Of a stretch of DNA of 64,000 nt, positions 256 through 64,000 are shown one piece after another. The DNA lies in contig NC_057755.1 in NCBI RefSeq assembly GCF_004010195.1, positions 10,077,989-10,141,988 of the forward strand, read 5' to 3'. Made by a program: the position numbers and the translations under genes. This DNA is from Chiloscyllium plagiosum (Eukaryota). Each line of letters opens with the position of its first letter. Position 1 is the first letter of the stretch. Under the pieces are notes generated by a model that did no database searches, was not told where the DNA came from, and worked only from the letters and a program-made list of their open reading frames with translations.

Positions 256-394
256 CGAATGCTTGTGCATGTATGCTGTTTTCATGGTCTCCATTTGAAT
301 GGGGTTGTGGAGCTGAATATCCATTCATGGAATTCCTGGATTTAATTTCATTGCAAATGTCCGGTGTTTCAGACACAATATGTTTCTCTTTGTT
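256..394 (-). CDS. Repeat-protein exon A5 (phase 0 to 1): NKEKHIVSETPDICNEIKSRNSMNGYSAPQPHSNGDHENSIHAQAF; gene continues beyond the left edge
   Basis: Acceptor cttgctctaacAG, donor G|GTGAGA, 139 nt open frame; homologous to the exons at 4842 and 8458 (NKE...HxNGxHE). Confidence 0.75.
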
Positions 395-3084
395 CTGTTA
401 GAGCAAGATTGTAAATCATCAGCAAGGGAGTGACATTTCCTTACATATTCTGTATTGACAATAAACAGAGCAAGGGAACTGGGTTTTGATATCTGCTCTG
501 GTGAATATCTGTGTGGAGTTTGCACATTCTGTGGATTTGTAGGTTCGGCGCATTAGTCGGGGTAATGTAGCATAATTGGGTAGCGGAATGGGTCTGGGTA
601 GATTACTCTTAGGAGAGTTGGTGTGCACTTGTTTGGAGAAAGGACCTGTTTCCACACTGCTGATAATCTATGAGAATACGATTCTCCCTGTGCCTGTGAG
701 GGTTTTCTCGCATAGTCCAAAGATTTGCAGGTTTGGTCGAATGGCCACAGCAAGTTGCCCAGATGGCCATGGATGTACAGGCCAGATATATTACCCATAC
801 ACATAAGGGTGAAGTGGTTCTCCTGGATGAAATATTTTTCAAATTGGGTGAATGGCGAACTTGCATGATGAGGTTTCTCTGATTCTAACTAATTAATTTG
901 ACAAATGCCCAATGAGTTGCATTATGTTTACTTCCCTGTGACTGAAACTGCCTTTAAATGTCAAATTAAGGAGAACAATTCTCCACAAATACTTGCTTTT
1001 ACATTTTGCGTGATTGTAATGACAGACGTTAACAAGATCTCAATGTGTGATATGGCCATTAACTGTAGAAATCTTAAGGAATCCCTGCCTGGCAAAAGTA
1101 GATGCTAGACATGTTACTGACGCGTACAAATGCAGAAGGCACAGATATATTTCATCTCATATCAATTTGACTAATCCTTTGTTTGAATACAAGTGAGGAG
1201 CGATGTCTCAGAATAAAGATGTGAAGAGCACAAATGGAAGGCGTAGAAAGGTTGACAATATTGAGCCAACTTGGTGCTGACCAGAGAATAACATTTGTTC
1301 TCAGAGGCAAGGATGCCGATATGATGTGCAAGACGGAGGAAGAGTTTCAAGTCCAAAAGTCGAGGTTATCAGGGGATGTCTGAGTTAGATGTTTTAAATG
1401 TGGGTAAGGTCGATCGCCAAGCGGACAGCAGTTCAGACAGCCAGAATATAACTTTTTTTTATTATATCTTATGTCACATAGGGGAGAACTGGAGTTTGTA
1501 TCGGTTATCTCAGAAATGAAACTTTGAGGATTAATGTGACATCATTGGAAATCAGATCGACATTAATTATATTCAAGCACGCATATGAAAGTGGAATTTG
1601 TACATTCTGAAGTGGATTGCTTTTTGGTTCATTGATATGTAAGATTATGCGCTAACACTATCGAAGTGTAACAGATGCAATATTTACTTCCTTTGGAAGC
1701 CACTGACATTATTCTGAGCTAAAAGTATTCCTCGATTTTCGTCTGAAAAAATACTTAGAAGTGGGAATTGAACGAATGAATAATTTTATTATCACGTGTA
1801 CTGGACAGAGAGGAAACAGTAAAATAAAAATTCGAAAGCTCTCCCACTGTTGCCCCGGTCATACACCATTTTGAATAGTTAGAAGAATAAGGAAAATTAA
1901 CAACAAAATAAGCATGGTCTAAAGTGTGTTCATCCGTCCTGAGCCAGCGTATTATCACTGACGCCCGCAAAACCGTCCTTCCTCCAACATTTTGCTACCA
2001 TCGACACTGGAACCAACTAATATATAAGGCACCAATCTTCAAGCAGCATCTTTTGCCGCGGGGCTGATTCTGCTCACACAATCTCGCTGACAACTACGAC
2101 GTTCCCAACAACATCAGCCTGTCATCTCTTGCTGCTGTGCCAACCTCACTGATGTGTCCATAATGCCCTTCTCCCACAGCTTCGCCACCAGTGCCAGAAC
2201 CAACCAGCGACAAAGTCAGCAACCCACAGCGGCTTCCTTTCGTTCTTGGTCTTACCGTGGTCGATGTAACCGCTGCTAACAAGCAGTCACCGATTCCAAT
2301 GCTAGATTTCATGCACACTCCATGGAAAGTAAGAAATGAGTCAATTGAGTTCACAGTGGGCTCACTCACTGTCTCACTCACTGCTGCTATTACCATCAAA
2401 GATCAAGACAGGAGGGTGAGTAAAAGAAAGCAAAACGAAAAGGAAAGAGAAAGCATTAAAAAGAGGAACAGAGAAATAACAGTCAGTCATAGCGGAGATG
2501 TACTGGCTAACGACACCATCTCCATTGCCACCTTGATGATGAAAGTGCATGTGAAATGCATCAGACTGGTTACATCAAGCTGTTGTTGAATCATAGAGAC
2601 CTCAAATCATTGAATCCCAGCAGTGCGGAAACAGGCCATTCGGCCCAAAGAGTCGGCACGAACTCTCCAAATGGCATCCCACCCAAGACCACCTTCACCA
2701 CAACTCCGAAACATCACTTGGATTTTATCAAAGTTAACAAACCTGATCACATATTCTTGTACATTAGGCGGTACTTTTTTAAGCACGGCCTATCCACCTA
2801 AGCTGCACTGCTTTGCAGAAGACAAGATAGGTCCTTTGGCCCATCATGCCCTGCTGCCCAGAAACAGCCATCTAACTATTGTAGTCCTATTTGCCAGCAC
2901 TTGGCCGAGAGTCTTGCCTGCCTTGTCCCTTCTTCTCAAATAAAATCGTATATTGGATAGCAATAAGTTTATATGAATCATAATGCAAACTCATGAACCT
3001 GGAATTACCAGAAAAAAATCAGGACAAAGGAACCTCAAATTCTTTCAGAGTAAGTGAATTCTAATCGAAATAATTTACACTAAC

Positions 3085-3197
3085 CTTGTCCACATCTTTT
3101 TTACTAACTTCCAGTAGTTTGTCCTGTTGTAGCTCTGCATCTCTGGATTGTTGAATGCCAGCTTCTGTTGACAAAGGTACACCTTCTCCATTACTCT
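3085..3197 (-). CDS. Repeat-protein exon B4 (phase 1 to 0): SNGEGVPLSTEAGIQQSRDAELQQDKLLEVSKKDVDK
   Basis: Acceptor tttgcattttctAG, donor AAG|GTTAGT, 113 nt open frame; lies within ORF 3061..3417. Confidence 0.75.
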
Positions 3198-4254
3198 CTA
3201 GAAAATGCAAAATAGTAATGACTTCAGTGAAAAATGCAAAGGTGCAATATAATAAACCCAAGGAGAGGCTACATCTTTTGTTTTGGGGCTTCAATGTGTG
3301 GGATATAATGGAATACATTTTCTCACTAACGTGATAACTTTTTTTTTGTTTTACCTGTGATATTAGTTTCAACCCTTCACTCTTCATTCCCATCACAAGG
3401 AAATTATTAATTAACAATTTTACAGTTTTATGCTAGATATGAAAACTCCATTCTCTAATTAGTTCCTTAAGTAAATTTTGCATACATTCGAATTGGTTGT
3501 CCAACCCAACATCAATGCTACTTAATTATACACAGAACAAGTGCACATTCAGATCTCCCTTTTTGCTGTAATACTCTTCACATTGATGTAAAAGTTCAAA
3601 ATTTGTGCTTGATTTGCATCACTCTTCTTGCTCAGTAGTCCACAAGCAATAAGTTTTCATAATAATTTTTATTTCTTCGTTCCCCAATTCAATTCTAGGT
3701 AATAATATTGAGAAAAGAATTTCACTTTCAGCACTGGTTACTGTGAAACTTTGAATTCAGAAAGCTGTTACACCACTCTATCCCTCTTTCCTGTCTTTGC
3801 TGTCATTGAGTGTCCTTCAGACCGACATCAATAGCTTCTTCAGTCATGGAATCAAGTGTGACAAGGAGAAGGCAGGAAAATGGGGTTGAGAAACATATCA
3901 GCCATGAAGGAATAGTACAGCAGACACAGTTTACAGAATGGTCTAATTCTGCTCCTATATGCTATTGTATTATGATGGTAAGAGGAACCGCCTTCATTTG
4001 CTTCTCTTCTTTTGTTACCTCCGAAGTTAAACACAACAAGTAGATCCCTTTGCTTCTACTACACGTTCATTTCCAGTCTGAATAACCGTTCCAATTCTGA
4101 AACTGAATAACCGCTCCAATTCTGAAACGGAGCAGGAAGCTCAGCCTCTGAATTCTCACTGTCAGCTGCAGCAAAATGTCTATTCCCCTAACTCTGTCGA
4201 CTCCTACCCACACTACATTCCAATTCCATAAACAAAATCTCGACTTAAAAGTTT

Positions 4255-4470
4255 AACAATAACCATGAAACCGTTGTCGAATATCACGTAAATCCATTTG
4301 GTTCAGTGACGTCATTTCAGGAAGGAAACTGCTATCCTTACCTGGTCTGCTCTGCTTTTGACTCCAGACCCATAGCAATATGGTGGATTCTTGATTGCCC
4401 TCTGGGCAATTATGCACAAACAATAAAGGCTGGTCCAGACTAGGGTACCCACATCCCATGAATAAATAAA
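4255..4470 (+). mobile_element. Deu-domain (SacSINE1-like) SINE fragment; related copies at about 7160-7310, 17960-18285, 18860-19200, 22850-23160 and 24020-24370 (minus)
   Basis: Shared motif ggttcactaatgtcctttagggaaggaaa...tgactccagacccacagcaat, recognised from memory of the family. Confidence 0.6.
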
Positions 4471-4473
4471 CAT

Positions 4474-4805
4474 AGAACATTACAGCGCAGTAAAGACCCT
4501 TCGGCCCTCGATGTTGCACCTCCCTGTCATACTAATCTGAAGCCCATCCCACCTACACTCTTCCATGTACGTCAATTTGCCGTCCAATGACGATTTAAAT
4601 GCACTTAAACTTGGCGAATCTACTACCGATGCAGGCAAAGCATTCCATACCTTTACTACTCTCTGAGGAAAGAACATACCTCTGACATCTGTCTTATACC
4701 TATCTCCTCTCAATTTAAAGTTGTGTCCCCTCGTGTTTGCCGTCCCCATACTTGGAAAAAGGCTCTCCCTGTCCACCCTATCTAACCCTCTGATTATCTT
4801 GCATG
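4474..4805 (-). mobile_element. CR1-type LINE 3' end
   Basis: TRGHNFKL...DVRGMFFPQRVVKVWNALP C-terminal motif plus 3' tail. Confidence 0.85.
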
Positions 4806-4841
4806 ACTCATATCCATTGGAGGAAATAAATGTAACCCCAC

Positions 4842-4983
4842 CAGAAACATTTTCGCCATTTTCATGGGCTCCATTTGGATGGAGTTGTGGAGTTGAATAT
4901 GCATTCGCTGTATCCGTGGTGTTAATGTCATTGGCGTTGTCCTTAGAGCATAGCGTTTCAGTCACTCCATCTTCCTCTTTGTT
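4842..4983 (-). CDS. Repeat-protein exon A4: NKEEDGVTETLCSKDNANDINTTDTANAYSTPQLHPNGAHENGENVS
   Basis: Acceptor cttgctcaaacAG, weak donor G|GTGGGG, 142 nt open frame. Confidence 0.65.
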
Positions 4984-5999
4984 CTGTTTGAGCAAGATTA
5001 CACTTTGTTAACAAGGGAATGACAATGCCTCATCTATTCTGTAGTCACAAGGCAGAGAGTCAGGGACACGTGTTTGATACCAACTCTGCGGGACTGTCTG
5101 AGTGGAGCTTGCACATTCTACCTGTGCCTGCATGGGTTTCATCTGCTTTCCTCCCACAGTCCAAAGACATGGATTGGCAAATTTCCATGGATGTGTAGGG
5201 ATGTATAAGCGAGGTAGTTTACCCACCATAAATATGAGGAGAGAGTGGGGTTCTGCTCCTGGTTTCAATGTTCTTTAGATGGGCTGAATTGCATCTATTT
5301 TCATTTTTAGGATTCGATGATTCTGAATTATTAATTTGACAAATGCCATAAAGTTTACAACACGTTTATCTCCCTTTAACTGAAAGAGTCTTTAAATGTC
5401 AACATAAAAAGAAAAAAATAATCTTTAAAATATTTGCTTTTCCATCTTGATGCCAAGTTGATGCGTAAATTGCGTGGGAAAAATGATAGGTCAGGACTAA
5501 AATGCTCTCTTTCCATCATAGAGATCTGAAATAATAGAGATCCCTGCAATTCAGAAAGAAGGCATTCGCCCCATTTCGTCTGCACCAAATCTCAGAATGG
5601 CATCCCACCCAGACCCAAACCACCACAACCCCAAAACTGCATTGGGATTTTACCAGTAACTCCACCTAACCAACACACCGCTTAACTCTACGGAGCATTT
5701 TTGGCATTGCCTATCTAACTGAATTGCACACCGTTTATGCAGAGATAACCAGCTCGCTATTTTAATGGTATTTGCAAGCACTTGGGCCCCAGCCTTTACT
5801 GCTTGGTCTGTCTTCTCAAATAGAATCTTTCATTGGATGGGAATTACTTTTTGGCTCGTTATAGAAATTGCTGGTCCTCGAAATACAAGAAACAATATAC
5901 TTTTGGTCAAATTCAAACATCAGTTAAGATCTATTTATGACAGAGGAAGTACGATTTCTTCAAGGTGAGTGAATTTTGACGGAGTGGATTTACACTGAC

Positions 6000-6115
6000 C
6001 TTACACACATCTTCTGTACTAATTTCCAATGGATTGTTTTGCTGTTGCTCTGCATCTTTAGATTGTGGAATGTCAGCTCCTGTTGACAAATTTGCATCTT
6101 CTTCATTATCGTTCA
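6000..6115 (-). CDS. Repeat-protein exon B3: NDNEEDANLSTGADIPQSKDAEQQQNNPLEISTEDVCK
   Basis: Acceptor ttttgcatttcctAG, donor AAG|GTCAGT, 116 nt open frame. Confidence 0.75.
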
Positions 6116-7309
6116 CTAGGAAATGCAAAACAAAACGTGATTAGAACATCGCAAATTCAATGCATTGAAAATTTGAAATATAAAAATGAATTAAACCACA
6201 CGCAGAGAAAACTTCTTTTCCTTTGGGGCTTAATTGGGCTAAAAATAATGGAGTACATTTTTCACGAACGTGATACCTTTTGTGTTTTACTTTTGAAATT
6301 ATTATCAACCCTTCACTAGTGATTCCCTTCGTAACAAAATGATTATCCAGCCATTTTACAGTTCTACACGAAATCTAAAACATGCATCCCTGGTTAGTTC
6401 CTTCAACATACTTTGCATTCATTCGAGGAATTTACCCGACTTAACATCAATGTTACTTAATTGTTTCCAGAATTAATGTACATTCTGATCCCCCTGTATT
6501 CCTGTGCTCCTCTGTCACATTGATGAGTAATTTCAACAAATGTGCTTTGATTTGCATCACTACTCTTGGTCGATGATCCACAAACAATACGTTTATATTT
6601 GGATTTTTACTTCTTAGTTCACCCAGTCTAATACTACGTAATAACAATGAGAAGTAAGATTAACTTTCAACACTGATTCCCAGAAACCTCTCAATTAAGG
6701 GAAGTATTACAAAACTTCCGAGTTTTCTGTCCTTGCTGTCATTGATTGTCTTTTAGGTCGATATCGACAGGTTTTTTTAAAGTAAATGAATCAAGGGTTA
6801 CAGGGAGAAGGCAGGAGAACAGGTTTGAGAAGCATATCAGCCATGGAAAAATAGTAGAGCAGACACGGTATAACGAATAGTCTAGTTCTGCTCTGTTTTT
6901 TTATGGCATTATGTTCGTAAGAATAAGCTCTTTATCAGCTTCTCTTCTTTTGTTACAACCCGCGTTAACCGCAAATAGTTCCCTCGTTCATTTCCAGTTT
7001 GAACAAATAGCTCCAATCCTCAAACTAAGCATGTAGCACAAACTCTGAATTCTAACTTTCAGCTGCAGCAGAATGCCTATTCCCCCAACTCTACCGTCTC
7101 CTGCTTCCACTACATTCTAAATAAATAAGTGTAAATCTGGAATTGAGAGCAAAATGATGATTATGAAACATTTGTCAACTATCAGATAAATCCATTTGTT
7201 TCAGTAGCGTCCTTTAGGCACCGACACGGTCAAACCTATATGGCCTGATCTGCCTACAACTCCAGGCACACAGCAATATGTTGGACTCTTGATTGCCCCC
7301 TAGGCAATT

Positions 7310-8300
7310 AGGGTCGAGAATGTAGTGTTGGAAAAGCACAGCAGAGCAGGCAGCGTCCGAGAGGTAGGAGAATCAATGCTTCAGCCGTAAACCATTCATT
7401 ATAAATGGGGCTTGTGGGTCGGTGCTGAGAGTTAAATGGGATGGGGTGGGGCTGGTGAAAGATAACTGAAGAAGTGTCAGGTGGAGATGGTGATTGTAAA
7501 GGTGATAGGTCAGAAGATGAGTGATGGACGGGTCCAGGGGACACTGCCGAGTTGGAGATTTGAGACTGGGATAATGAGGGGAGAGGAGAAACGAGGAAGC
7601 TTTTTTTAAATCCTCATTTATCCCGTGTAGTTGCAGAGTCCCAAGGCAGAAAAAGAGGAGTTCCTCCTCCAGATGTCGCATGGAAACAGTTTGTCCCAGG
7701 ACCTGAATGTCCTTGACAGTGAGGGAGGATAGGTTGACACGTCCAGACAAGGACGGTGGGAAAGTTGACTGCCGATGTCCCGGAGATGTTCTCGGAAACA
7801 ACCCGCAAGAAGGCATCCTGTCTTCCTGATGTAGAGGATACCACATCGGATGGCAACAGATGCAGTAAATGACGTTGGTAGAGGTGCTGGTACAGTTGTG
7901 ATGGATGCGGAATGATCCCTTCAGGCCTTGGATCGAGGTGATGGGAGTGGTGTGGGCGCAGATTTTACACTTCCTGTGGTGCAAGGAGTGTGGTAGGCTG
8001 GTGGGGGATATGGACCTGGCGAGAGAGTTGCAGATGGAATGGTCTGTTCGGAATGCTGACAGGGTTGGGGAGTCAAATATATCTCTCGAGGTGCGGTCTG
8101 TTTGGAGGTGGTGGAAGTGGTGAAGGATGATGCGTTGTATGCGGATGTTGTTGGGATGGAAGGTGAAGACTAGGAGTGTTCTGTCCTTGCGTTTTAGGAG
8201 GGGTGGTGTCCAAGGGCGGTGGTGCGTGAAGTGGAGGAGATGCGCTGGAGGGCATCACCAACCAGGTGGGAAGGAAAGTTGCAGTCGTGGAAGAAGGAGG
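7310..8300 (-). mobile_element. Degraded Penelope-like element 3' part (GIY-YIG endonuclease with Cys-rich motif, Neptune-like)
   Basis: ORF 7373..7984 CKIC...TSTSTNVIYCICC...LFFCLGTLQLHGIN, followed by the typical 3' terminal sequence. Confidence 0.75.
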
Positions 8301-8457
8301 TCATATGGGACTCACTTAGTTGGAATTGGTGATCCCAGAAACAGATCCAGCGGAGGCAGAGTAATTGACAATAAAAGATAATCCCGAATGGGTTGCCCAC
8401 ACCCTATGAATGAGTAAATAAAAGTCATATCCATTGCAGGAAATAAAATAATCTCAC

Positions 8458-8599
8458 CAGAAACATCTTTGCCTTTTTCATGCTCTCCATTTGGATGTGG
8501 TTGTCGAGCTGATTCTGAATTCGTTTCAGTCATGGGTTTAATGTCATTGCAATTGTCCTTACACCGTAATATATCAGTCATAGCATTTTCCTCTTTGTT
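8458..8599 (-). CDS. Repeat-protein exon A3: NKEENAMTDILRCKDNCNDIKPMTETNSESARQPHPNGEHEKGKDVS
   Basis: Acceptor ttcttgctcaaacAG, donor G|GTGAGA, 142 nt open frame. Confidence 0.78.
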
Positions 8600-10415
8600 C
8601 TGTTTGAGCAAGAATACAATTTGTTAGCAAGGGAATGACAATTCCTTACCTATTCTGAATCTGCAATGCACAGAGTGAGGGATCTGGATTTGGTATCAGC
8701 TCTCGGGGACTGTCTGTGATAATTTTGCAAATTCTCCCCATTTCTCCGTTGGTTTCGATGGCTTTCTTCCCACAGTCCAAAGATGTAGATTGTCCATGTC
8801 AATTTTCTGCGAATGTCCAGGGAGTAATTGGCTAGGTAGATTAACCACGATTAAAATGAAGATCGTGTTGTTGTATGCTCATGGGGGAAATGTTGTTCTG
8901 ATGGGCTGCATGGTGTCAATTTGCACTGTGGGGATTCTAAGATTAAAAATGATTAATTTGATTCGCGCCAGAAGGTTTACACCACAGTTACTTCCTTTTG
9001 ACTGAAATAGGTTGTAAATGCCGAATTAAGGATAATAAATCACTCTAAAGCATTTGACCTTACATCTCGATTCATTGACAGGAGAGACAGCAAGATCACT
9101 TCACTTGTCTGATATGGCGATTGACTTTAGAAATCTCTAGGAATCCCTGAACAACAAAACAATGTGCTTAATGTGCAACTGATGAGTAAAAATTCAGGAG
9201 GAACAGATATATTTCACATCAGAAGTGTCGGAATAAAATATCAGTTTAGTAAATATAGGGAGAAATATTCCAATGTAAAGAAGTGAAGAGCACAAATGGA
9301 AAGCACAGAGTGATTGTCAAAATTGAAAGAATTGCACATTAACTAGAAAATAATATGCAATACAACAATTCGTCCTTGGAGGCAAGATGCTGATATGACT
9401 TGCAATAGAGAGGGCAAGTTAAAAATACAAATGATGGGGTGATGAGGACTGGACAGACCCAGTTGTGTTGATTATAGGTAAGATCCATCACCACCTGGAC
9501 ACCTGCTGAGACAAACAGTATGTAACTTCGTATTTCTGACATCACAAAGAGAACAACTGGAGCTATTATCACTTATCTCAGAAATAAAACATTGGCAATT
9601 CATGGGACATCATTGGAAGTCAGATCTACATTAATAATATCCAGGCTCTCGCCTAAAAGAGGTATTTCTGAAAACTTGTTGTACAGTTGTTGCTATTGAA
9701 TATGATAAAATATGCAATAACGCCATCTATAGGTAGAAGATCCAATATTCATTTAGTTTGAGAGCCAGCCACATTACTCTGGAGTGAAATATGACCACGG
9801 TTTTCAGGTAAGAGAGACATGAAAGTAGAAATTGCGTGGATAATGCATAGGTTCGTAAGAAATTCGTAGTTATAGAGTCTCAGAGATCTAGAATTATAGA
9901 ATCCCACACTGCAGAAAGAGATTTTTCTGCCCATCGAGTCTGTCCTAACACTTAGAAGGGCATCCCACCCAGACCCAAATCCATCGCCCCAATCCCTACA
10001 TTCCCAAAAGACCCTCTGGTTTTTGCAATGGTTAACTCACTAACCAACATACCCTAACTACAGGGCAATTATTCTTAACAGGCCAATCCAACTATCCGGC
10101 ACATCTATCCAAAACAATTAAAAGACGATTCAGCCCATCAGATCTGTGTCAGTTAGAGGCAACAAGACAAAAAAATTAATCTTATGTCCCAGTACTTGGT
10201 CCATGGTTTTTAATGTCTTGGTCTTTCTTCTCATGTAAAATGCAACATTGTAAATATTTATTTTCTAAGAACTGTGAGACTACTTGATGACCCTGTAAAT
10301 ACAATAAACAGTACACTTCTGTTGGGTTCCACTGTTGGATAAGATCCATTTATGACAAACGAAACTCAGCTTCAATTGAAGTGAATGAATTCTGATAGAA
10401 TGGAATTGCACTGAC

Positions 10416-10531
10416 CTCGTCCATATCTTCTTTAATTTTAAATGTATTGTCCTGCTGTAACGCTGCATCTTTGGATTGCTGAACGTCAGCCACAGTCGCC
10501 AAAGTTGCCATATTTACATTGTTATCACCCT
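10416..10531 (-). CDS. Repeat-protein exon B2: GDNNVNMATLATVADVQQSKDAALQQDNTFKIKEDMDE
   Basis: Acceptor gttttattttatAG, donor GAG|GTCAGT, 116 nt open frame. Confidence 0.72.
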
Positions 10532-10765
10532 CTATAAAATAAAACATTCATCACATCATTGCAAGATATAATGCACTAGCATCTTTAATTGGCAACAGTT
10601 CTGAACGACTGGAACATGCATAATTTACAACTGTACGAACGAATGTCAAGTACAATTGCTCATTAGAAACATGTAGAATTATTTATCTGTTTTGTAACCT
10701 CTTGCCATCCACAATAAATCTGTCGAATTGATGATTTCCTTATTTTGTTCTTACGTTTTGCAAGG

Positions 10766-12749
10766 TTTGTGAAGGTTTGTAGCTCAGGTTGAGGTTTAGG
10801 GTGTAGGTTTGCTCGCTGAGCTGTAGGTTTGATATCCAGACGTTTAATTACCTGGCTAGGTAACATCATCAGTAGCGACCTCCAAGTGAAGCGAAGCTGT
10901 TGTCGCCTGCTTTCTATTTATATCTTTCTCCTGGAGGGGGTTCCTGGGGTTTGTGGTGATGTAATTTCCTGTTCGTTTTCTGAGGGGTTTATAGATGGCA
11001 TCTAGATCTATGTGTTTGTTTATGGCGTTGTGGTTGGAGTGCCAGGCCTCTAGGAATTCTCTGGCATGTCTTTGCTTAGCCTGTCCCAGGATAGATGTGT
11101 TGTCCCAGTTGAAATGGTGGGGGTTTTTTTCATCCGTGTGTAGGGCTACGAGGGAGGGAGGGTAGTGTCTTTTTGTTGCTAGCTGGTGTTCGTGTATCCT
11201 GGTGGCTAACTTTATTCCTGTTTGTCCTACGTAGTGTTTGTGGCAGCCCTTGCATTGAATTTTGTAGATGACGTTGGTTTTGTCCATGGGTTGTACTGTG
11301 TCTTTTAAATTTGTTAGTTTTTGTTTGAGAGTGTTGGTGGGTTTGTGTGCTACTAGGATTCCGAGGGGTTTCAGAAGTCTGGCTGTCATTTCTGAAACTT
11401 CTCTGATGTTTGGTAAGGTGGTCAGGGTTTCTGGCTGTGTTTGGTCTGCTTGTCATGGTTTGTTCTTGAGGAATCTGGGCACTGCGTTTTTTGAGTATCC
11501 GTTCTTCTTGAATACGTCGTATAGGGGGTTCTCCTCTGTTTTTTGAAGTTCATCTGTGCTGCAGTGTGTGGTAGCTCGTTGGAATAGTGTTCTGATACAG
11601 CTTCGTTTGTGTGTTTTGGGATGGTTGCTGGTGTAGTTGAGTATTTGGTCAGTGTTTGTCAGTTTTCTGTATACGCAGGTTTGTAATTCTCCCTTATCAT
11701 TTCTTTCTACTGTGACGTCCAGAAAGGTGTCATCTAAGTAGCGAACCCAGATTTTTGGTTTGATAATTGGTAGGGCTGTTTGTTCTAGCCTTTGCATTAC
11801 CGCTTCTGCTATGAATCCTGATAACGGAGATCCCATGGGTGTGCCGTTGGTTTGTTTGTAGTGAAGTGAAAGTGAAGTGTGTGGTGAGGCACAGGTCCAC
11901 TAGTTTCATGATGTTTTCGTTGGTAATATGATTGATGGTGGTTGGTGTGTGTGTGATGGTCTCTTCTAAAAGTGTGGCTAGTGTTTCCTTTGCTCAGTCG
12001 AGATTGATGGAGGTGAACAGTGCTGTTACGTCGAATGAGATCATTGCTTCGTCTTCATCTATTTTGGTGTTTTTGATGATTTTTAGGAATTCCTGGGTGG
12101 AGTGGATGGAGTGTTGTGACTCTTCTACTAGGTACTTCAGTCTTGCGTGTAGTTCTTTGGCCAGTCTGTATTTGGTGTTCCGGGTAGTGAGACTGTGGGT
12201 CTGAGGGAGGCTCCTGGTTTATGGATTTTTGGTAGTCCGTAGAATCGTGGGGTGTTGGTCCCGTCGGGTTTCATTTTCTGGAATTCCGTCTTGTTTGTTT
12301 GTCCGGAATTGTGTAATTTCCTGAGGAGATATGTAATTTTGTTTCCTAGTTGTGTGGTCGGGTCTAGCGCCACCTTTTGGTAAACGTTGGTGTCTGCGAG
12401 TAGTGCATTGGTTTTCTCAATGGAGTCCGACCATTTCGACTGCGACAACACATCGATCCTGGGACAGGCTAAGGAAAGACATGCCAGAGAATTCCTAGAG
12501 GCCTGGCATTCCAACCACAACGCCATAAAAAACACATAGATCTAGATGCCATCTATCAACCCCTCAGAAAACGAACAAGAAATGACATCACCACAAACCC
12601 CTGGAACCCCCTCCAGGAGAAAGATATAAATAGAAAGCAGGAGACAACAGCTTCGCTTCACTTGGAGTTCACCACTGATGATGTTACCTAGCCAGGTAAT
12701 TAAACGTCTGGATATCAAACCTACAGCTCAGCAAGCAAACCTACACCCT
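10766..12749 (-). mobile_element. Penelope-like retroelement (RT plus GIY-YIG) with an inverted pseudo-LTR
   Basis: PRFYGLPKIHK, MGSPLS, WVRYLDDTF, NVIYKIQC..C..YVGQT..RIHEH..EAWHS; 12431-12749 is the reverse complement of about 10799-11117. Confidence 0.92.
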
Positions 12750-12899
12750 TGGCTTTTACTTGCCAAACATACAATTTGAAGTCATTGATTTTGCTTCAGC
12801 TTACTAAATATAAATTGGTGAACTGTCACATGTGTAAAGGTGTATAAATAATCGTACTACAATATGGTAACAGAAAACTTCCATTGGAATAAAACCAAA

Positions 12900-13500
12900 A
12901 TAACTGCAGAGGCTGTAAAAAATAAATAAATATTGAAATTATTGGAAATACCATGTAGGTCTGGCAGCATCTGTGAAGAGAAATAGAGTTAAGGATTCAG
13001 AATAGTCGCCCTTCCTCAGCATAGTAATTCTGCAGCCTTCTGGACTCAATATTGAATTCAATAACTTCAGGATTTGAGCTCTCCCATGACCTTACCCCAA
13101 TACCAGGCCTTGTGTAACACTGTCTGTAATAACTAATCCGTGTAACGCTGTCTGTAATGACATATTCTGTTATTACATTCAACCAATTTTTAGCAACTAA
13201 CAGTCCCTATTAATAAGTATTAACACTCCCAACCAGATGACTATCCACTCCTTTATCTGTACAGCTGTTCTTCTCCCTCTTTGGACTCTAACCCAAATTC
13301 TCTTTTACTTCTCACACCCTCCCACCACTCTATCTTCTGCGAAGAAACGACAATTTCCGAGCTACCATCAGTTTTGAGAAAGAGTAAAATATCCAGAAAG
13401 TAAACTCAGATTTCACTCTACGGGGGCTGTCAGACTGATGATTATTTTCCAGCAACTTCTGTTTTTTTTTCTGAATTACAGCATCCGCAGTCTCTTTGGC
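12900..13500. mobile_element. Short Penelope-derived element with inverted ends
   Basis: ctgcagaggctg...ctggcagcatctgtgaagagaaatagagtt on the left is mirrored by aactcagatttc...cagcatccgcagt on the right. Confidence 0.55.
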
Positions 13501-13704
13501 TTTTATCTGGCACAAAGCTTAAATGCATAAAACAGTCCTCTTAAGTCTATTTTCTCCTATTCCCAGATGATTCTTTTTAACTCACCAGCTTGAAGTCTTC
13601 TTCTGCAATGGTGACACACAACATGTCTATATATCGTCCATTTATGTCTGCCATCCACCTATCCCATACCCCTCACCCACTGCCACTCTAAACTCTCCAC
13701 TCAG

Positions 13705-14160
13705 AGTCATAGAGTCAAAGAGATGTACAGCATGGAAACAGACCCTTCGGTCCAACCCGTCCATGTGACCAAATATCCCAACCCAATCTTGTCCGACCTG
13801 CCGGCACCCAGCCCATATCCTTCCAAACCCTTCCTATTCATATACCCATCCAAATGTCTCTTAAATATTGCAATTGTACCAGCCTCCACCACATCCTCTG
13901 GCAGCACATTCCATACACGTACCACCCTCTCTGTGAAAAAGTTGCCTCACAGGTCTCTTTTATATCTTTCCCCTCTCACCCTAAACCTATGCCCTCTAGT
14001 TCTGGACTACCCGACCCCAATGAAAAGACTTTGCCTATTTATCATATCCATGCCCCTCATAATTTTGTAAACCTCTATAAGGTCACCCCTCAGCCTTCGT
14101 CGCTCCAGGGAAAACAGCCCCAGCCTGTTCAGCCTCTCTCTTTAGCTCAGATCCTCCAGC
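13705..14160 (-). mobile_element. CR1 (HER1-like) LINE 3' end
   Basis: VRVWNVLPEDVVEAGTIAIFKRHLDGYMNRKG motif and a tail shared with the SINEs. Confidence 0.88.
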
Positions 14161-14797
14161 CTCTTCAACGTAGATTCCCAATCTACGTCTCCTGTACATC
14201 TTCCTTCTGTAATGCGCCAAGCCCACTCAGACCCGTACCTAGTGTGCAAAACACTTTTTCAATTAAGACGTTATCCCCTCAGTACCTTGCCCAATAAGCT
14301 TTCATTCTTCAGGAAGTTTTCATGAGACAGATAGTGTGAAAAGGTGCAGGTTGACCTCATTGTAAATTCTCTTAGACGCTACCCGAGAGGGGCTGGATGT
14401 ATTGTTTGTGATACAGAGTGACATCAAGGGAATGTGGTAATTTCTTACACTGGCTGAGATTGCTATAAAGGTCTGTTCTTCCACACCTCTAACCTCATCT
14501 GAGGCGCAGTGACCCTGAGGTTAATCCACCAGAAAGCATCTCTCTCCTTTTTTTTAATAAGGAAGAAGTCCTATGCTCCGGGTGGACTGTTGTGACTTTC
14601 ACCCACAAGGTTTGCCATATTTTGTCAATTCATTTTCAAAGAATACTCCATGCCAAACACATTGGAGGAACATTAGGTCGTAATGCATTGTCTGATTTGT
14701 ATATCAGATATACCTTCTAATCCTGAGAAGAAGTTTATTTGTATAAAATGGTACACATTGCTGCAAATATGATTTCAACTGGAAAATAAAAACTCAC

Positions 14798-14948
14798 CAG
14801 GGCCACTTGTGTTTCTGGCATTTGGATGCTCGCAATTTTCTTCCAGTCCTAGAGGAACCTCCTCAAACATATTATTTGTCGGGCTGGCATCCTCATTGGA
14901 ACTATCACCAAAGAATATAGTTTCCATATGTGCATTTTCCTCTTGGTG
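14798..14948 (-). CDS. Repeat-protein exon A2: HQEENAHMETIFFGDSSNEDASPTNNMFEEVPLGLEENCEHPNARNTSGP
   Basis: Acceptor ttttgtttgcttAG, donor CTG|GTGAGT, 151 nt open frame, phase 0 to 1; not in the ORF track. Confidence 0.78.
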
Positions 14949-16513
14949 CTAAGCAAACAAAATTTGAATAGATGATCTGTGACAAAACCTTTATTTTCTG
15001 AACTTGTTCAGCTTTGCATGTTCCCACCCAATAACAATGAAAATCCCCCTGATCGAGTTTAGACAGGTAATAAAGAAATGAACCATACTGCAGATCGAAA
15101 TTTCAAATTGTGTTTAAAACCTTGCTAATATATGGCGTTCAGAATTGTGTGCAGTTCATCAAATTACACCTAGTCTAATTTGTGAAGAGATGCATATTAT
15201 TCTCTTATTTTGCAACCCAATAATATATGCAGGAACAGTCTGCAAAAAATGCATAGTCAGATAAGCAATAGACTGCGGTTATAGGTTGCGTGGGAATAAC
15301 AACTTTAATGTTACATGTTTCCCTGAATTCAGGCATCCAATTTGTCTCTTTACATTAACGTTTGCAGGTAGTCTATCAAACTGAGATTTTGAAATGTTCT
15401 CAATCCTAACAATTCCAGGTAATTTATTTGTTCCCCTCACTAGTTTCGGGAATGACCTCTCTTAAGGACGCAACTGTCTGCCACGTGTGACTGAAGAGGC
15501 CTATTTTCGATGTTTAAAAATGCCAGATGCATAACTGGAGCATAGTACTGGACTTGAGTCATTAATATTCTCTACAACATCACTGCCAAGTCTTTGACAT
15601 TTTTCAAAACATGATGAAGATTCATGGGCAAGTTCTTTTCAATTTGAAATCGCCTATCTATCCTTATGTCATAGCTTTGTTCTCAAAGATCGTTTCAGGG
15701 TGATTTTATTTTGTGGAAATTTCTTAATTCTCCCTTGAATGTTGTCTTTTTGATAATTGGGCAAAAGGGGCCAGGAGGAGACACATGAATCAGTTATCTG
15801 GAAATAGCATTGGATACATCGTAGTTGATCTTGTAACTGTTTTTTTTTGCCTTCATTATGTGTACAGCTGGCTCCAAGCATGAGACTCTGGCTTATTTTT
15901 CAGTTCGATAAGCTGAATAGCCTCTTTCCACCTTATAGAGATTCTACGATTCGAATCCAAACATGATTTAAACAATGCAGAATTTAACCTCACAATTTGG
16001 TCCCTTAGTTACTTCAACATCTGTGGAAACATCCAATCCATTCCCCAACGGCTTCATGTTGAACCCTCCTTAGCAATAATCGGTTTGGAATCCAATATTA
16101 GAAAGAGAAAAAATAATCATGTCCAGCAAATACAATTCTTGGGAGTTGAGATTTTCTACAAACCATGAACTACAAATCGGCTTGATGCCGATTCAATGCA
16201 TGCAGGTGCAATATACCAGTTCCACTATACCAGTCTAATTCTAGTTCTTAATGACATGTCAGGATGAAGGATGAAAGAAGGATGAAGCACTGGAGGAAGG
16301 TGAAGACTGATCGACAACATTAAGTGGCCTGGAGGCTGAGGAATGAATGTTTAGTATGCAAAATATCACAGTGTAGAGAATCACAAAGCGGCAAGTCTGC
16401 TGTTTTAAGTTTACAACAAGAAACAAAACGTGTCACATAACATTGCTTATACGCAAATGATCTCAGTTGGTATGATTTGAGAACAGGACAAAATACATTT
16501 ATGTAAAACCTAC

Positions 16514-16683
16514 CTCCAATTCTCGGTCAGTGAGTGCATTTGGTTGAAACTGATTTGGATGCATATTGTTCACAGATTCCTCACCATTTTCAGATGGACT
16601 GCCCTGCTGACTCGCTGTATCTTTGGACAGCTCAGGGTCAGCCATAGTTGACTCAATGGGTGCAGTTGCAACATTATCTCCCA
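16514..16683 (-). CDS. Repeat-protein exon B1 (long form): GDNVATAPIESTMADPELSKDTASQQGSPSENGEESVNNMHPNQFQPNALTDRELE
   Basis: Acceptor gtttattttatAG, donor GAG|GTAGGT, 170 nt open frame, phase 1 to 0. Confidence 0.78.
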
Positions 16684-17599
16684 CTATAAAATAAACATTG
16701 GGAAAACTAAAGCTGGAGAGTTGCAGGATATGGCAAATATTTCAAAAATCATCCATTCGTGAGCATCATGTGTTGCATGAAAATGTTCATGACTTCAGCA
16801 TTAAGAACACAACGATTGCAAACCAAATGCCCTGTATTTACGATATAAATGTGTCCTAACTTGTCTTCTTTCTATTCTCCAACTCGACTCTGCCACCATC
16901 CAAATCCATTTCTAAGTTTATCATTTGCTTATCCAATTTGCAGAAAACTTCAAGGGCATGTATGTGTCATAGATAACTCTCCCCATGTCTGGATGCAACA
17001 TGGACATAAAACGACGAATTGATAAATGGTCACAGTGGGTTATTAAAATGGATTGCAATTGGTTGGATATTCATTCATAGCCCCTGCCTTAATCTGGTCA
17101 ACAATACTCAAACCGATATCTGTTCTGCCAAACTCTGTCAGGAATGATGTCAGATTTGTAAAGGAAAAGCAGTAATTTGAAAGTGTTTTATCTTATTGAC
17201 TTTCGGCATGTGAGTTGGAGATATCTCCATGACTTACTGAGGTTAAAGCACATTGGTGAATATTCAGACTCTGAAATGGTGGGCACAAGACTGAAGATTG
17301 ATTGATCCTCACATGTACTGAAGTGGTTTGGATGTATGTGCTCAGGGGTTTGGGGGTGTTTGACGGGATGGGGGTGGGGCGGGGTCGTCGGAGGGCTGAT
17401 CTTTCAGCAGGGTCTCTCAGGTACATAATGATCATTTTATTGAATTGTGCCAGTCATCCCTGAATGATCCCCTGAGAGAGGGAGAGAGAGCAAGTGAGAG
17501 GGGAGAGAGAGAATAGGGGGTAGGGCTGATAGTGAACTTCTGGTGGCAACAAGGGATAGTCAATAAATACTATGAGGGAAAAAAGGTAAATCAACTCAC

Positions 17600-17744
17600 C
17601 AGTTGCACAGTCATGACTACTATTACCATGGTGTTTATTTTCCTGCAGTCCTGGATTTTCAGCCTCAGTGATCACGTGTGTTGTGTCTTTGCTGTCAGTA
17701 TCATGATTATGCAGAATTTCCATGGGTGAATTTTTGTCTTGGTC
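17600..17744 (-). CDS. Repeat-protein exon A1: DQDKNSPMEILHNHDTDSKDTTHVITEAENPGLQENKHHGNSSHDCAT (possible start Met at 17723)
   Basis: Acceptor tttgtcatatttAG, donor CTG|GTGAGT, 145 nt open frame, phase 0 to 1. Confidence 0.78.
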
Positions 17745-20669: not shown

Positions 20670-20775
20670 CTATATATATATAAGTGAAAAATCTATAATT
20701 ACAGGCAGCAGATTAAACAGGTGGGTCGAATTCAAAATTTGATGATCTTCTGTAATTCCTTCATTGCGAATTAAT
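20670..20775 (-). CDS. NLR terminal coding exon: LIRNEGITEDHQILNSTHLFNLLPVIIDFSLIYI*
   Basis: Acceptor tgtctttcAG, phase 2 entry; same position and phase as the paralog's terminal exon at 60817-60904. Confidence 0.65.
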
Positions 20776-20971: not shown

Positions 20972-21163
20972 CTGATTTCTTTGATATTATTTTTGCATTT
21001 GATTAGATGGTACAAGGAGGGGATGCAGTTTTCAGTCAGTTTGTTTATTTGGTCTTCATCGTGATTATCATTACTCAAGTCAAGCTCCGACAATGAACTA
21101 TTTTCACTGAGTACAGAGACGAGACCTTCCACACAATCATCTGTGAGATTGTTTGATTTTAAC
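20972..21163 (-). CDS. NLR LRR exon (192 nt): LKSNNLTDDCVEGLVSVLSENSSLSELDLSND...KEIR
   Basis: AG/GT sites, phase 2-2, ribonuclease-inhibitor-type LRR (LxxNxLxD, LxxLDLS); same length as paralog exon 61480-61671. Confidence 0.9.
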
Positions 21164-21611: not shown

Positions 21612-21698
21612 TCCACTATCTGTATTTTGCAATCATGTTTTTTCAGAGCTGCAGCCAAGCAATTTATTCCAGCATCTCCAAACTCATTCCTGTTAAGT
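21612..21698 (-). CDS. NLR LRR exon (87 nt): LNRNEFGDAGINCLAAALKKHDCKIQIV
   Basis: Acceptor ggtctttAG, donor GA|GTGAGT, phase 2-2, LRR consensus; same length as paralog exon 61942-62028. Confidence 0.9.
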
Positions 21699-24968: not shown

Positions 24969-26682
24969 CTGAGTATTTTACATTTGGACAAAATAGGCTC
25001 TAGCTGATGAACACCTCCATCTTGTATTCCACAAGCAGAGAGATTCAGGTCTTCTATCTGTTCCATGTGTACAAATGAAGTGGCAAGAGCTGCACAGTCA
25101 GACGGTTTCAGAAGACACTGGGTGAAAGTTATTGATTGTAGCGGTTGGAAGGAGTCACTAATCAATGGTTTGTCTTGAAATTCAACAAAGCAATGCATCA
25201 GCTGTAAGAAGACCCTCTGGCTTTGCATATCGCCCGTTTTCTGAATACGCCTCCTAATATTGTCCCTGAGCCAAACAGACACGAGTTGAGTTGCTTCAGA
25301 GGGAAAATCACCCAAAAGCTTCTGGAGCTGATTGTTCGAATTGTGTGAAAGCAGGCCAATTAAGAAACGTGAAAATATCTCGAATCTGTTGTCACTGCAG
25401 GTGAAGCCTTCATCAAGCTGCCTGATCAGACCTTTTGAGGATGTGGTCAGACATTTGGCTACTGCAGCAATGAAATCTTGCAGAACAGATTGATTGAAGG
25501 CATAAGCAAATCTGTGTGACTCTCCAATCTCCCTCACAAAGGAAGAGATGAAAATGGAATCCTCAAGCTTGTGCTGATTGATTTGATCAGAATCAAATAT
25601 AATGGTTTTGCTGCTAACTCCTTTCCAGGCCACCTCGCCAATTTTTATTAGTTGACTGCAAAGATTTCTCTCATCACAATGGCATCTTGCTAAAAGTTCA
25701 GTGATGTACGCGGAAAGCATCTCTGTGCTATTTGGAACCAGCAGTGGCCCCTGTTTCTCTTGTTCTTTCAGACGTTTCGTCAATAGTGAGGAAAGAACAG
25801 CGCAGTACAGAGGGGTATAGCACATGGTGTATAATGTCTCATTCTGCTGAATAGATTCCAATACACTCGTGGCTAATTGTTCATCTGCAAAACATTGGCG
25901 AAAATATTGTTTTATACTCTTCGAGGTGAACCCCAGGATCTCCCCTCTTAGATTTATTTTTGTCTTTGCTAAGTTCCCCATTTTCCAAGGCCGACTTGTG
26001 ACCAGAATTGAACAACCATGCAGCAAGTATCCCTGGATAAGGCAACGCGCAATGTCTGATGTCCAATGCAGTGATTTGGTATCAAAACATTGATTCTGAG
26101 GGTCTTTGCATCTCTCCAAATCAATAAAATCCACGCCACTGTCAAACTTGTCTAAATCGTCGAATATGAACAATATGCTTCCAGGATCTTCCCATATATA
26201 TTCTAATTTACTTGCAAGGTAGGGGTATGAATTCAGAATTAGGGTATTTAGATTTGTTTTGACATTTATTGAGTTTAATTGTGGGAAATTTAATTGAAAT
26301 ACAAATTTAAACTCTTGGTATATTCTCCCTTTAGCCCAATCATGGATTATCTTCTGGAGCAAAGTGCTCTTTCCAATTCCTGCAGCCCCAAATACCACCG
26401 TTGTTCCAAATTTGTCTGTTTCAGAGCCACTCCTCAGTAATTGATCGATCTGAACTTGATGCACACTCTTGATACTTTCTGTTTGCATTCTTTCACGTTC
26501 TTCACCTCGGGAATTTAGTTCATTTTCTATCAAGCTAAGTTCACGTATGGGAGCTACAATCATCATGTCTGTGTATTTCTCCTCAAGTGAAGATGTCTCA
26601 CACTTATCTCTTCCTGAAGTTACTGTGGAACTCAACATCATAGTCTGTATCCGAAGGTTCTCCCTGTGTTGACACTCTTGCC
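24969..26682 (-). CDS. NLR (NACHT/LRR, NLRC3/NLRP-like) large NACHT exon: pre-NACHT segment, NBD, HD1, WHD, HD2, first LRR
   Basis: ORF 24965..26755: Walker A GAAGIGKS, DWAxG..Y..F.FVF, Walker B-like FIFDDLDK, sensor 1 LVTSR, MCYTPLYC, QDFIAA, RFLIGL; acceptor ttcttttcaattaaAG (phase 1), donor AG|GTAATT (phase 2). Confidence 0.95.
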
Positions 26683-32034: not shown

Positions 32035-32179
32035 AACTTTTTGGATTCTTGTTTGGTCCTTCATCTTCCAAGTATGAGCGGTTATCTTTATTGACGATTT
32101 CCGTGGAGATTTTGTCATTACTATGAACAGGTGCCATAGCAGCAATCCGTTCGTCGCTTTGATTCGACATTTCATCCAT
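32035..32179 (-). CDS. Alternative candidate NLR initiation exon: MDEMSNQSDERIAAMAPVHSNDKISTEIVNKDNRSYLEDEGPNKNPKS
   Basis: AGAATGG Kozak-like context after an in-frame stop, donor T|GTAAGA in phase 1; strong acceptor at 32628 would supply a long 5' UTR. Confidence 0.35.
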
Positions 32180-63800: not shown

Positions 63801-64000
63801 GAGGTAAATGAGGAGTACCCTTGTACAGGTTGTGAATGCTGGTATCTGGGCTCCTTCTTTCTGCTAGGTTTCCTGGATTGAACATAGAACCGAGCAGAAG
63901 CGAGGATTATGGCACATGGTGTATAATTTCTCATCCTGCTTGATATAATCTGAAGCAAACTGTCTAGCTGCAGAGCAGCGATGAGAATGTTGTTTCATCG
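60817..64000 (-). pseudogene. NLR paralog pseudogene, 3' part: NACHT exon 63064 to >64000, LRR exons 61942-62028 and 61480-61671, terminal exon 60817-60904
   Basis: LYTMCHNPRFC, VFTHSILKDFIIA, WLKDKI...YCLLEF, EELDL; at least 3 in-frame stops and 2 frameshifts in the NACHT exon; exon sizes and phases match the intact NLR; terminal exon LINNQFSEEG...VIKE*. Confidence 0.9.

Follow-up and report, generated by a model that had tools for sequence, protein, structure and literature searches.

A tandem array of two alternating exons as the probable disordered linker of an NLR gene in the shark Chiloscyllium plagiosum

Background

What kind of gene is assembled from two short exons repeated in alternation, and what is the relationship of such an array to the NLR gene beside which it is found? 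The question is raised by a stretch of 64,000 nucleotides from the genome of the shark Chiloscyllium plagiosum (assembly GCF_004010195.1, contig NC_057755.1, positions 10,077,989 to 10,141,988), referred to here as the window, where nine short exons of two kinds, A and B, alternate on the minus strand between positions 256 and 17744. The initial annotation, made from the sequence alone, took them for a hidden gene segment next to an NLR gene, encoding an acidic, disordered protein of variable copy number, possibly a protease bait, or 'tripwire', analogous to the disordered N-termini of NLRP1 and CARD8. We find that the A/B array is most probably the middle of one C. plagiosum NLR gene, made of internal coding exons, and forms the linker between its sensor half and its death-fold domains. 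All positions below are those of the window, with negative numbers to its left, unless they are given on its contig, C46 (C46:10077989-10141988).

Nine exons of two alternating kinds

In the order of transcription, the exons are A1 (17744-17600, 145 nucleotides), B1 (16683-16514, 170), A2 (14948-14798, 151), B2 (10531-10416, 116), A3 (8599-8458, 142), B3 (6115-6000, 116), A4 (4983-4842, 142), B4 (3197-3085, 113) and A5 (394-256, 139), which is the last exon of the array. Each of the nine has AG immediately before it and GT immediately after it. The A exons (139-151 nucleotides) lead from phase 0 to phase 1, the B exons (113-170 nucleotides) from phase 1 to phase 0, and the spliced product of 1234 nucleotides, or 411 codons, is free of stops. 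Since stops occur in both of the other frames (9 and 53), the idea that these are leucine-rich repeat (LRR) exons read in another frame was rejected. Among 200000 joins of nine length-matched random minus-strand segments none was stop-free (mean 21.3 stops); for a single segment of 140 nucleotides, the chance that a given frame is open is 12%. The recurring motifs are NKEE...HPNG.HE in A and AD.QQSKDA.LQQ in B. The initial description of the array, from positions and phases to splice sites, length and open frame, is correct to the base, and both of its motifs are present as described. It had recognised no domain in the repeat peptide, and Pfam likewise gives no family: the proteins P0001, P0002 and P0005 receive only sub-threshold chance matches (PIN_5, CdhC), and the A/B region has no usable match in the ESM Atlas.

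Splicing was seen when four of 16 sequencing runs (X1, X2, X3 and X5), none of the 16 being recorded as RNA, were compared with window:2901-22900. In X1 (798 million letters), intron bins have depth 1-8, and exon contigs with splice joints have depth 434-1218. Fifteen of its 344 joints were listed; those between exons of the gene have CT..AC ends on the plus strand, or GT..AG on the minus strand. Contigs of X1 join seven pairs of exons, three of which precede the array or lead into it: LRRa to LRRb (21161/21610, depth 1218.6), LRRb to the bridge exon X (20775/20972) and X to A1 (17743/20702, depth 434). The other four lie in the array: A1 to B1 (16683/17600, depth 434), B1 to A2 (14948/16514, with 151 letters on the shorter side), A2 to B2 (10531/14798) and A4 to B4 (3197/4842, depth 549.8). 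A contig leaving B4 at 3085 continues with the first 32 letters of A5, and the bin of A3 has depth 918. The A/B exons are real, spliced coding exons, and they share a transcript with the leucine-rich exons of an NLR, by X1 joints from LRRa to B1 and, for the step from NACHT to LRRa, by gene models. The splicing predicted in the initial annotation is borne out by the four joints within the array and by NCBI models that hold the exons. Run X5 (single-cell polyA, about 2% of it read) has repeat-like coverage only; X2 and X3 are evenly covered and look unspliced.

At positions 8518 and 8571, in exon A3, all X1 contigs differ from the genome (A>C and A>G) at a depth of about 2500, greater than that of neighbouring exons; this may reflect an allele, or the reads may derive from an A3-like exon of a paralogue.

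The array within an NLR gene

An open frame of 1148 codons runs from an ATG at 32179 through exons E1, NACHT, LRRa, LRRb and X to A1-A5, with the X1 joints given above and with model joints for E1 to NACHT and NACHT to LRRa. Addition of residues 196-964 of P0001, the NCBI model for the downstream part, gives an inferred protein of about 1917 residues, which consists of a 48-residue N-terminus, a NACHT-winged helix-HD2 unit, two short LRR-like exons, the bridge exon, the A/B part of 411 residues, four C repeats of about 140 residues each and, at the end, two tandem CARD-like domains, D1 and D2.

E1 (32035-32179, minus strand, as for all exons of this gene) contributes the start codon at 32179 and 48 codons plus one base. 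It was located by tblastn with residues 1-52 of P0004, the orthologous model of C. punctatum (77% identity); its translation, M...NPKS, has no known domain, ends at a GT donor and is in frame with the NACHT exon. The latter (24969-26682, 1714 nucleotides) lies 7 kilobases (kb) upstream of the array on the same strand, encodes NACHT, winged helix and HD2, and is 95.4% identical to P0004 at the amino acid level. In window:24968-26758 (minus strand), Pfam NACHT scores 104.6 bits, well over its cut-off of 26.7; NLRC4_HD2 (46.2 bits) is matched as well, NOD2_WH stays below its cut-off (19.3 bits), and the P-loop GAAGIGKS is visible in its open reading frame. LRRa (21612-21698, 87 nucleotides), with an acceptor placed by homology with P0036, and LRRb (20972-21163, 192 nucleotides, 91% identical to P0004) are LRR-like by eye; Pfam LRR families have no match at E<=0.01 in window:20857-21171 (minus strand) and none at E<=1 on P0003 and P0004. 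X (20703-20775, 73 nucleotides) connects these exons to the array. Downstream of A5, to the left of the window, come the C exons, of about 430 nucleotides each, at -1603..-2034, -3772..-4203, -5287..-5718 and -6814..-7233, flanked by two degenerate C copies with stops; then the pairs of exons, each of about 170 nucleotides, that encode D1 (-10373..-10543 and -12140..-12310) and D2 (-13430..-13597 and -14977..-15174). The C exons and D exon pairs are themselves tandemly repeated, so tandemly duplicated exons or exon pairs make up the entire 3' half of the gene, from A/B through C to D.

The array had been placed next to an NLR gene; it lies inside one, as seen from the LRR-X-A1 splices and from the frame that stays open from the ATG at 32179 to A5. 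The initial annotation had suggested looking for a CARD or NACHT exon to the left of the window, and the CARD-like D1 and D2 are indeed found there, the NACHT exon being instead upstream, within the window. The alternative that the CARD exons form the N-terminus of a further, downstream NLR was rejected: the order is repeats, CARD-CARD and stop, and the next open reading frame encodes a 7tm_1 receptor.

Gene models, a paralogue and other sharks

Five proteins were retrieved with a downstream repeat exon as the query. P0001 (NCBI LOC122544125), an 'uncharacterized protein' of 964 amino acids, starts at a methionine inside A3 and holds A3-A5, C1-C4, D1 and D2. Its first 195 residues are the last 195 of the spliced A/B peptide; residues 1-25 and 26-64 map at 100% to A3 and B3, residues 149-195 map to A5, and A4 is contained in it as well. 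The C. punctatum model P0004 (1438 amino acids) comprises E1, NACHT, LRRb, X, all nine A/B exons (A1 at 94% and B2 at 95% amino acid identity) and C repeats. Another C. punctatum protein, P0002, is NACHT-less, E1 being joined directly to a B1-like exon with NACHT-LRR skipped. P0036 (LOC122544084) represents a paralogous locus about 125 kb to the right of the window's gene in C. plagiosum and contains E1, a NACHT remnant, LRRa, LRRb, X, four A and three B units, one C unit and one D domain. The Stegostoma tigrinum NLR model P0038 has X and an A1-like stretch at its end; the adjoining model P0006 lies on the same contig, starts within the last part of B1 and continues with A/B, C and D-D. The fused layout is found in the paralogue and in two other orectolobiform sharks, with a Stegostoma NACHT that is 71% identical.

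The number of A/B units is 5A/4B in the window's gene and P0004, 6A/6B in P0002, 4A/3B in P0036 and 2A/1B in P0006, so that the copy-number variability proposed at the outset is seen in four predicted proteins. An A+B pair measures 258-315 nucleotides, and therefore the frame survives when a pair is gained, lost or skipped. No C. plagiosum protein with the window's NACHT exon was found among those of 313-998 amino acids, and none with A1-B2 among those of 790-2517 amino acids; the 5' half of the gene thus looks unannotated in the collections searched. The word 'hidden' in the initial annotation holds for A1-B2, which are in no C. plagiosum model found, and fails for the rest, in that LOC122544125 holds part of A3 through A5 and the C. 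punctatum model holds all nine exons. The NCBI models that contain the exons are named 'uncharacterized protein'.

At the paralogous locus (C46:10190001-10260000, L014-L020) the exon order is the same, A1-B1 is doubled and one D domain was found; its NACHT exon, at 86% DNA identity, has four stops, and the LOC122544084 model is spliced around the broken NACHT part. P0002 gave only six stretches at >=70% on this locus, and the window's own exons were mapped there instead.

Origin of the array

The A/B unit has been duplicated in tandem together with its introns, which align at 60-72%: 2516-4412 aligns to 5442-7310 (67% over 1975 columns), 4808-5451 to 8425-9071 (72%) and 682-1770 to 8742-9834 (65%). 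Among the younger copies, exon identity is 75-76% for A3/A4/A5 and 77% for B3/B4, and that of the adjoining 200 nucleotides of intron on either side is 61-79%. The introns contain transposon-derived repeats, as had been noted, among them the remains of a Penelope-like retroelement in the A2-B2 intron (10798-12749), with RVT_1 (25.3 bits) and GIY-YIG (16.9 bits) both below cut-off and with inverted arms of 324 nucleotides at 95% identity.

A piece of 3.4 kb with exon B2, flanking intron and this element (9825-13198) has a second, inverted copy about 66 kb away (-56020..-59489, about 92% identity), and this copy includes an isolated, open B2-like exon at -56720..-56604. On a small unplaced contig (C87536:6233-6435) there is one more exon of type A, with 80% identity to A4.

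The C-terminal D domains

The D domains correspond to residues ~735-844 and 850-956 of P0001, at its C-terminal end. A phmmer search with P0001 retrieved 31 proteins at E<=0.001, including itself; only P0003, P0006 and P0007 cover the repeat part, and the remaining 27 match the D region only. The D homologues have E values from 7e-16 to 7e-4 and about 26-31% identity over about 105 amino acids. Of 28 phmmer matches that were scanned with Pfam, 12 have a NACHT domain, and in 12/12 the D-type stretch is N-terminal of it. Since the D-type domain is N-terminal in these other elasmobranch NLRs, the orectolobiform gene looks like a domain permutation.

The homologue P0012 has a Pfam CARD match of 30.3 bits (cut-off 23.9) within the stretch that matches D2, and P0009 scores 23.4 bits; a profile of nine D homologues, compared with PDB sequences, found no CARD, only a weak match to AcaB (E 0.023). 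An AlphaFold2 (AF2) model of the C. punctatum protein P0008, which is 85% identical to P0001 820-956, has six helices in residues 26-123 (alignment of nine sequences, pTM 0.50). When this model was compared by VIA-align with 48161 chains, CARD entries made up at least 20 of the top 24 matches, with Z from 8.7 to 6.1 over 74-97 aligned residues, a range that is to be read with caution, as Z below about 13 can reflect the common arrangement of helical bundles. The best match has Z 8.7 and a root mean square deviation of 2.7 over 85 residues; among the CARDs are zebrafish ASC (8.6), NLRC4 (8.6 and 8.0), ARC (7.8), caspase-1 (7.7), NOD1 (7.6) and NLRP1 (7.3), and DED and DD entries score lower (Z 6.1 or less). 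Foldseek returned no matches at E<=0.001, its top entries being CARDs (CARD8, ARC, RIP2, zebrafish ASC). In the ESM Atlas, CARD clusters come up for the D region at a score of 0.81, which is at the level of a lead only, and the structure matches are unrelated bacterial proteins with TM<0.4. Taken as predicted, the D domain is probably a CARD-like death fold; because the Z values are middling for helical bundles, we call it CARD-like and stop short of calling it a proven CARD.

Two more D-type exon copies, 69% and 55% identical to D1b, are found about 225 kb to the right (C46:10365085-10369243, plus strand), near stop-carrying NACHT fragments at 10344667-10345970.

Composition and evolutionary rates of the array

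The A/B part is rich in Asn (11.7%), Glu (11.7%), Asp (9.0%) and Ser (8.3%), with Ala and Thr also among the leading residues. Its net charge of -56 is spread over all nine exons (-2 to -10 each), and its hydrophobic fraction is 0.18 versus 0.38 for NACHT. In a charge-hydropathy comparison, the A/B part (H 0.365) falls below the boundary of 0.462, the C region is on the boundary, and the D and NACHT parts are on the folded side (0.477 for the NACHT exon, boundary 0.418). An AF2 model of the whole P0001 has no helix or strand in residues 1-732, helices being confined to 733-961. The A/B part is accordingly predicted to be intrinsically disordered, and it would form the first portion of an acidic, disordered tether of about 950 residues from the sensor half to the signalling half of the protein. 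The charge, the hydropathy and the lack of predicted secondary structure agree with the acidic, disordered region of the initial annotation.

Between the window's locus 1 and the paralogous locus 2, the proportions of synonymous and nonsynonymous differences in 11 A/B exon pairs are pS 0.181 and pN 0.151, and the ratio of the two rates (dN/dS) is 0.81, compared with 0.31 for NACHT and values between 0.25 and 0.59 for LRRa, LRRb and X; one C exon reaches 1.14. For D1, dN/dS is about 1.1 at a divergence so low (pS 0.055) that recent conversion is suggested. Among A/B copies, dN/dS is 0.69-1.97 on small counts. Identity to C. punctatum is 88.2% in A/B (350 of 397 aligned residues) and 95.4% in NACHT (544/570). 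Gaps between loci 1 and 2 occupy 11 of 1530 exon positions versus 970 of 5985 columns of flanking intron, in line with the early remark that frames and splice sites are intact despite drift of the residues. In copies taken from three species (22 of A, 18 of B), the motif cores (D..CNDIKP and H.NG.HEN in A, ADIQQSKDA.LQQD in B) are kept at 70-90%. The residues of A/B look as though they evolve almost neutrally, yet frame, splice sites and motif cores are kept, so that the array appears weakly constrained but short of unconstrained.

Proposed role of the array and alternative explanations

In the scheme that we propose, the A/B array would be a flexible, negatively charged tether carrying many copies of short motifs. 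It would keep the C-terminal CARDs soluble and non-polymerising, or shielded from contact, and would set their reach; activation would follow from NACHT oligomerisation, or from the tether being bound, modified or cut. Duplication or loss of in-frame A+B exon pairs would adjust how long the tether is and how many motifs it carries. Any single mechanism for the tether is much less certain than the anatomy of the gene.

Several observations weigh against that anatomy or against the reading of its parts. The library type of X1 is unrecorded, and it was taken as RNA solely from its spliced, exon-only coverage. Joints from B2 to A3, A3 to B3 and B3 to A4 are absent among the 15 of 344 X1 joints that were listed, and B3 has a bin depth of 1.38, because of which it may be skipped, diverged or filtered in this sample. 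The junctions E1 to NACHT, NACHT to LRRa and A5 through C1 to D2 come from predicted models. Pfam CARD (PF00619) has no match at E<=1 on P0001, P0002 and P0005, the P0008 model reaches a pLDDT of only 64, and the caution on Z values applies here too. In the model of the whole P0001 every residue is below pLDDT 50, helices included, so the lack of structure in it is a weak result and is compatible with a fold in the C repeats. A dN/dS near 1 would also suit a part without function. Finally, NCBI splits the gene in two in both C. plagiosum and Stegostoma, and separate transcripts may exist for that reason.

The split models can be taken at face value, with A/B-C-CARD made mainly as an adaptor-like protein of its own from an internal or alternative start, and the NLR splice a minor read-through. 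P0001, which starts in A3, and Stegostoma P0006, which starts in B1, have no NACHT; P0002 joins E1 to a B1-like exon past NACHT-LRR; and the length band of 313-998 residues yielded no C. plagiosum protein with the window's NACHT exon. However, the X-A1 and A1-B1 contigs have depth 434, the same as within the LRR part (434-1218) and the array (550-864), the frame is open across the bridge exon, P0004, P0036 and P0038 carry the fused layout, and the Stegostoma split, falling exactly between A1 and B1, looks like a break in prediction; we consider two genes rather unlikely. Within a single gene, the array might be drifting, exonised filler, tolerated without a role and kept because a frameshift would lose the CARDs downstream. 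The dN/dS values between loci and, on small counts, among copies would fit this, as would copy numbers that vary freely and an identity between exon copies (75-77%) barely above that of the adjoining introns (61-79%). Motif cores kept at 70-90% over 18-22 copies in three species, acidity in all nine exons and a layout conserved as far as Stegostoma, where NACHT is only 71% identical, speak against filler, which we regard as unlikely.

The array might also be a bait for proteases, the 'tripwire' of the initial annotation: the repeats would display many decoy cleavage motifs, and a cut anywhere would free CARD-CARD and start signalling, in a version that needs neither FIIND autoproteolysis nor proteasomal 'functional degradation'. 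The CARD-like domains do stand C-terminally behind a long disordered stretch. The residues of the array change fast (88.2% identity to C. punctatum versus 95.4% for NACHT, dN/dS 0.81 versus 0.31), its copy number varies, the conserved cores include a Gln-Ser pair in that of B, and the NACHT-less P0002 recalls CARD8 beside NLRP1. A Gln-Ser pair would suit 3C-type proteases. Viral proteases are reported to cut fast-evolving regions of NLRP1 and CARD8 (PMC7857732, PMC10249858). On the other hand, the known release mechanism cannot apply where there is no FIIND, dN/dS is below 1 with no sign of positive selection at this resolution, and conserved cores are equally compatible with sites of binding or modification, so that a tripwire seems quite unlikely. 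A more specific version, in which a FIIND-independent tripwire arose separately in orectolobiform sharks when the CARD pair moved behind a decoy array of about 950 residues, a cut in any repeat freeing CARD-CARD, is very doubtful. If it were true, the freed CARD-CARD would seed an inflammasome-like filament, and gain or loss of A+B pairs, together with the NACHT-less form, would quickly retune the repertoire of baits. The reading we prefer remains that of a tether inside one NLR gene.

Relation to known proteins

NLRP1 is the known NLR with a C-terminal CARD, whose release is made possible by FIIND. In the shark gene the CARD-like domains are likewise C-terminal, behind NACHT-LRR, and the NLRP1 CARD (3kat, Z 7.3) is among the fold matches of the D domain; a rapidly changing disordered stretch, and a NACHT-less relative or isoform that has it together with the CARD (P0002), are further likenesses to the NLRP1/CARD8 pair. 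The shark gene differs in having no FIIND/ZU5-UPA between LRR and CARD and no PYD, in the place of its disordered part, which is between LRR and CARD and not at the N-terminus as in NLRP1, and in ending with two CARD-like domains instead of one. FIIND has no match at E<=1 on P0001-P0005 or on a C exon, and the five FIIND matches in the genome are on contigs C25 and C13, none on C46. No Pfam family is found N-terminal of NACHT in P0004, and E1, of only 48 residues, holds no PYD. The NACHT exon is 41% identical to a Pristis protein that NCBI names 'NLRP1 homolog', an identity that is no test of orthology. In layout the shark gene is most like NLRP1/CARD8, yet it is outside that family, and the analogy first drawn with these proteins stands for the CARD-like C-terminus and fails for FIIND and for the N-terminal position of the disordered part.

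Peptide repeats of about 30 amino acids, shuffled as exons, are described N-terminal of FISNA-NACHT in teleost NLR-B30.2 (NLR-C) proteins by Howe et al. 2016 (PMC4852459). These too are lineage-limited, exon-based NLR repeats of variable number; by that description they are set apart from the shark units, which are of 38-57 amino acids, of two alternating types and C-terminal of LRR. Neither FISNA nor B30.2 (SPRY/PRY) has a Pfam match on the NACHT exon or on P0003/P0004. Elasmobranch 'NLRP3-like' NLRs share the homologous D domain and the NACHT family with the shark gene; their D-type domain precedes NACHT, whereas in the shark gene it stands at the C-terminus, after about 950 disordered residues. 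Two tandem CARD-fold domains are found also in NOD2 and RIG-I/MDA5, and CARDs of RIG-I and MDA5 are among the fold matches (Z 5.7-6.2), but in these proteins the CARDs stand at the N-terminus, with short linkers between them and the sensor. An NLRP-related expansion is reported for the whale-shark genome (PMC8455134), in passages that are silent on this layout, and no publication on this gene was found in the literature on shark and cartilaginous-fish NLR, NACHT, CARD and FIIND.

Neighbouring sequences

Downstream of the NLR gene lies an intact open reading frame of 315 codons for a rhodopsin-type receptor (Pfam 7tm_1, 56.6 bits; -27975..-27031, L010:2025-2969, minus strand). A broken copy of such a receptor, in two pieces of 17.9 and 19.0 bits, both below cut-off, is found at 42216-43189 (minus strand), between the two NACHT exons of the window, and the NLR and receptor genes seem to have been duplicated jointly. 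The second of these NACHT-type exons, at 63119-64000 and beyond (C46:10141429-10142526), is 34% identical to the main one, has eight stops in the matched stretch and is likely a pseudogene. The GA-rich minisatellite of about 4 kb at -39424..-35046 (L011/L012) has three open frames, which read (GERERERE...)n; it is an ordinary tandem repeat and no gene.

Conclusions

The array is best read as an internal linker, predicted to be disordered, in an unusual, lineage-specific NLR that was partly present in the automatic annotation, which is corrected here: for this genome, E1, NACHT, LRR and A1-B2 are in no model found, and the downstream half was filed separately as an 'uncharacterized protein'. 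An NLR whose sole recognisable signalling domains are C-terminal, behind a very long disordered array of duplicated exons and without FIIND, is an arrangement not known to have been described for NLRs. A protein made in this inferred form would raise the question of how an NLR signals through CARDs that are some 950 disordered residues away, and it would offer a natural case in which the copy number of an exon pair alters the length of an immune sensor.

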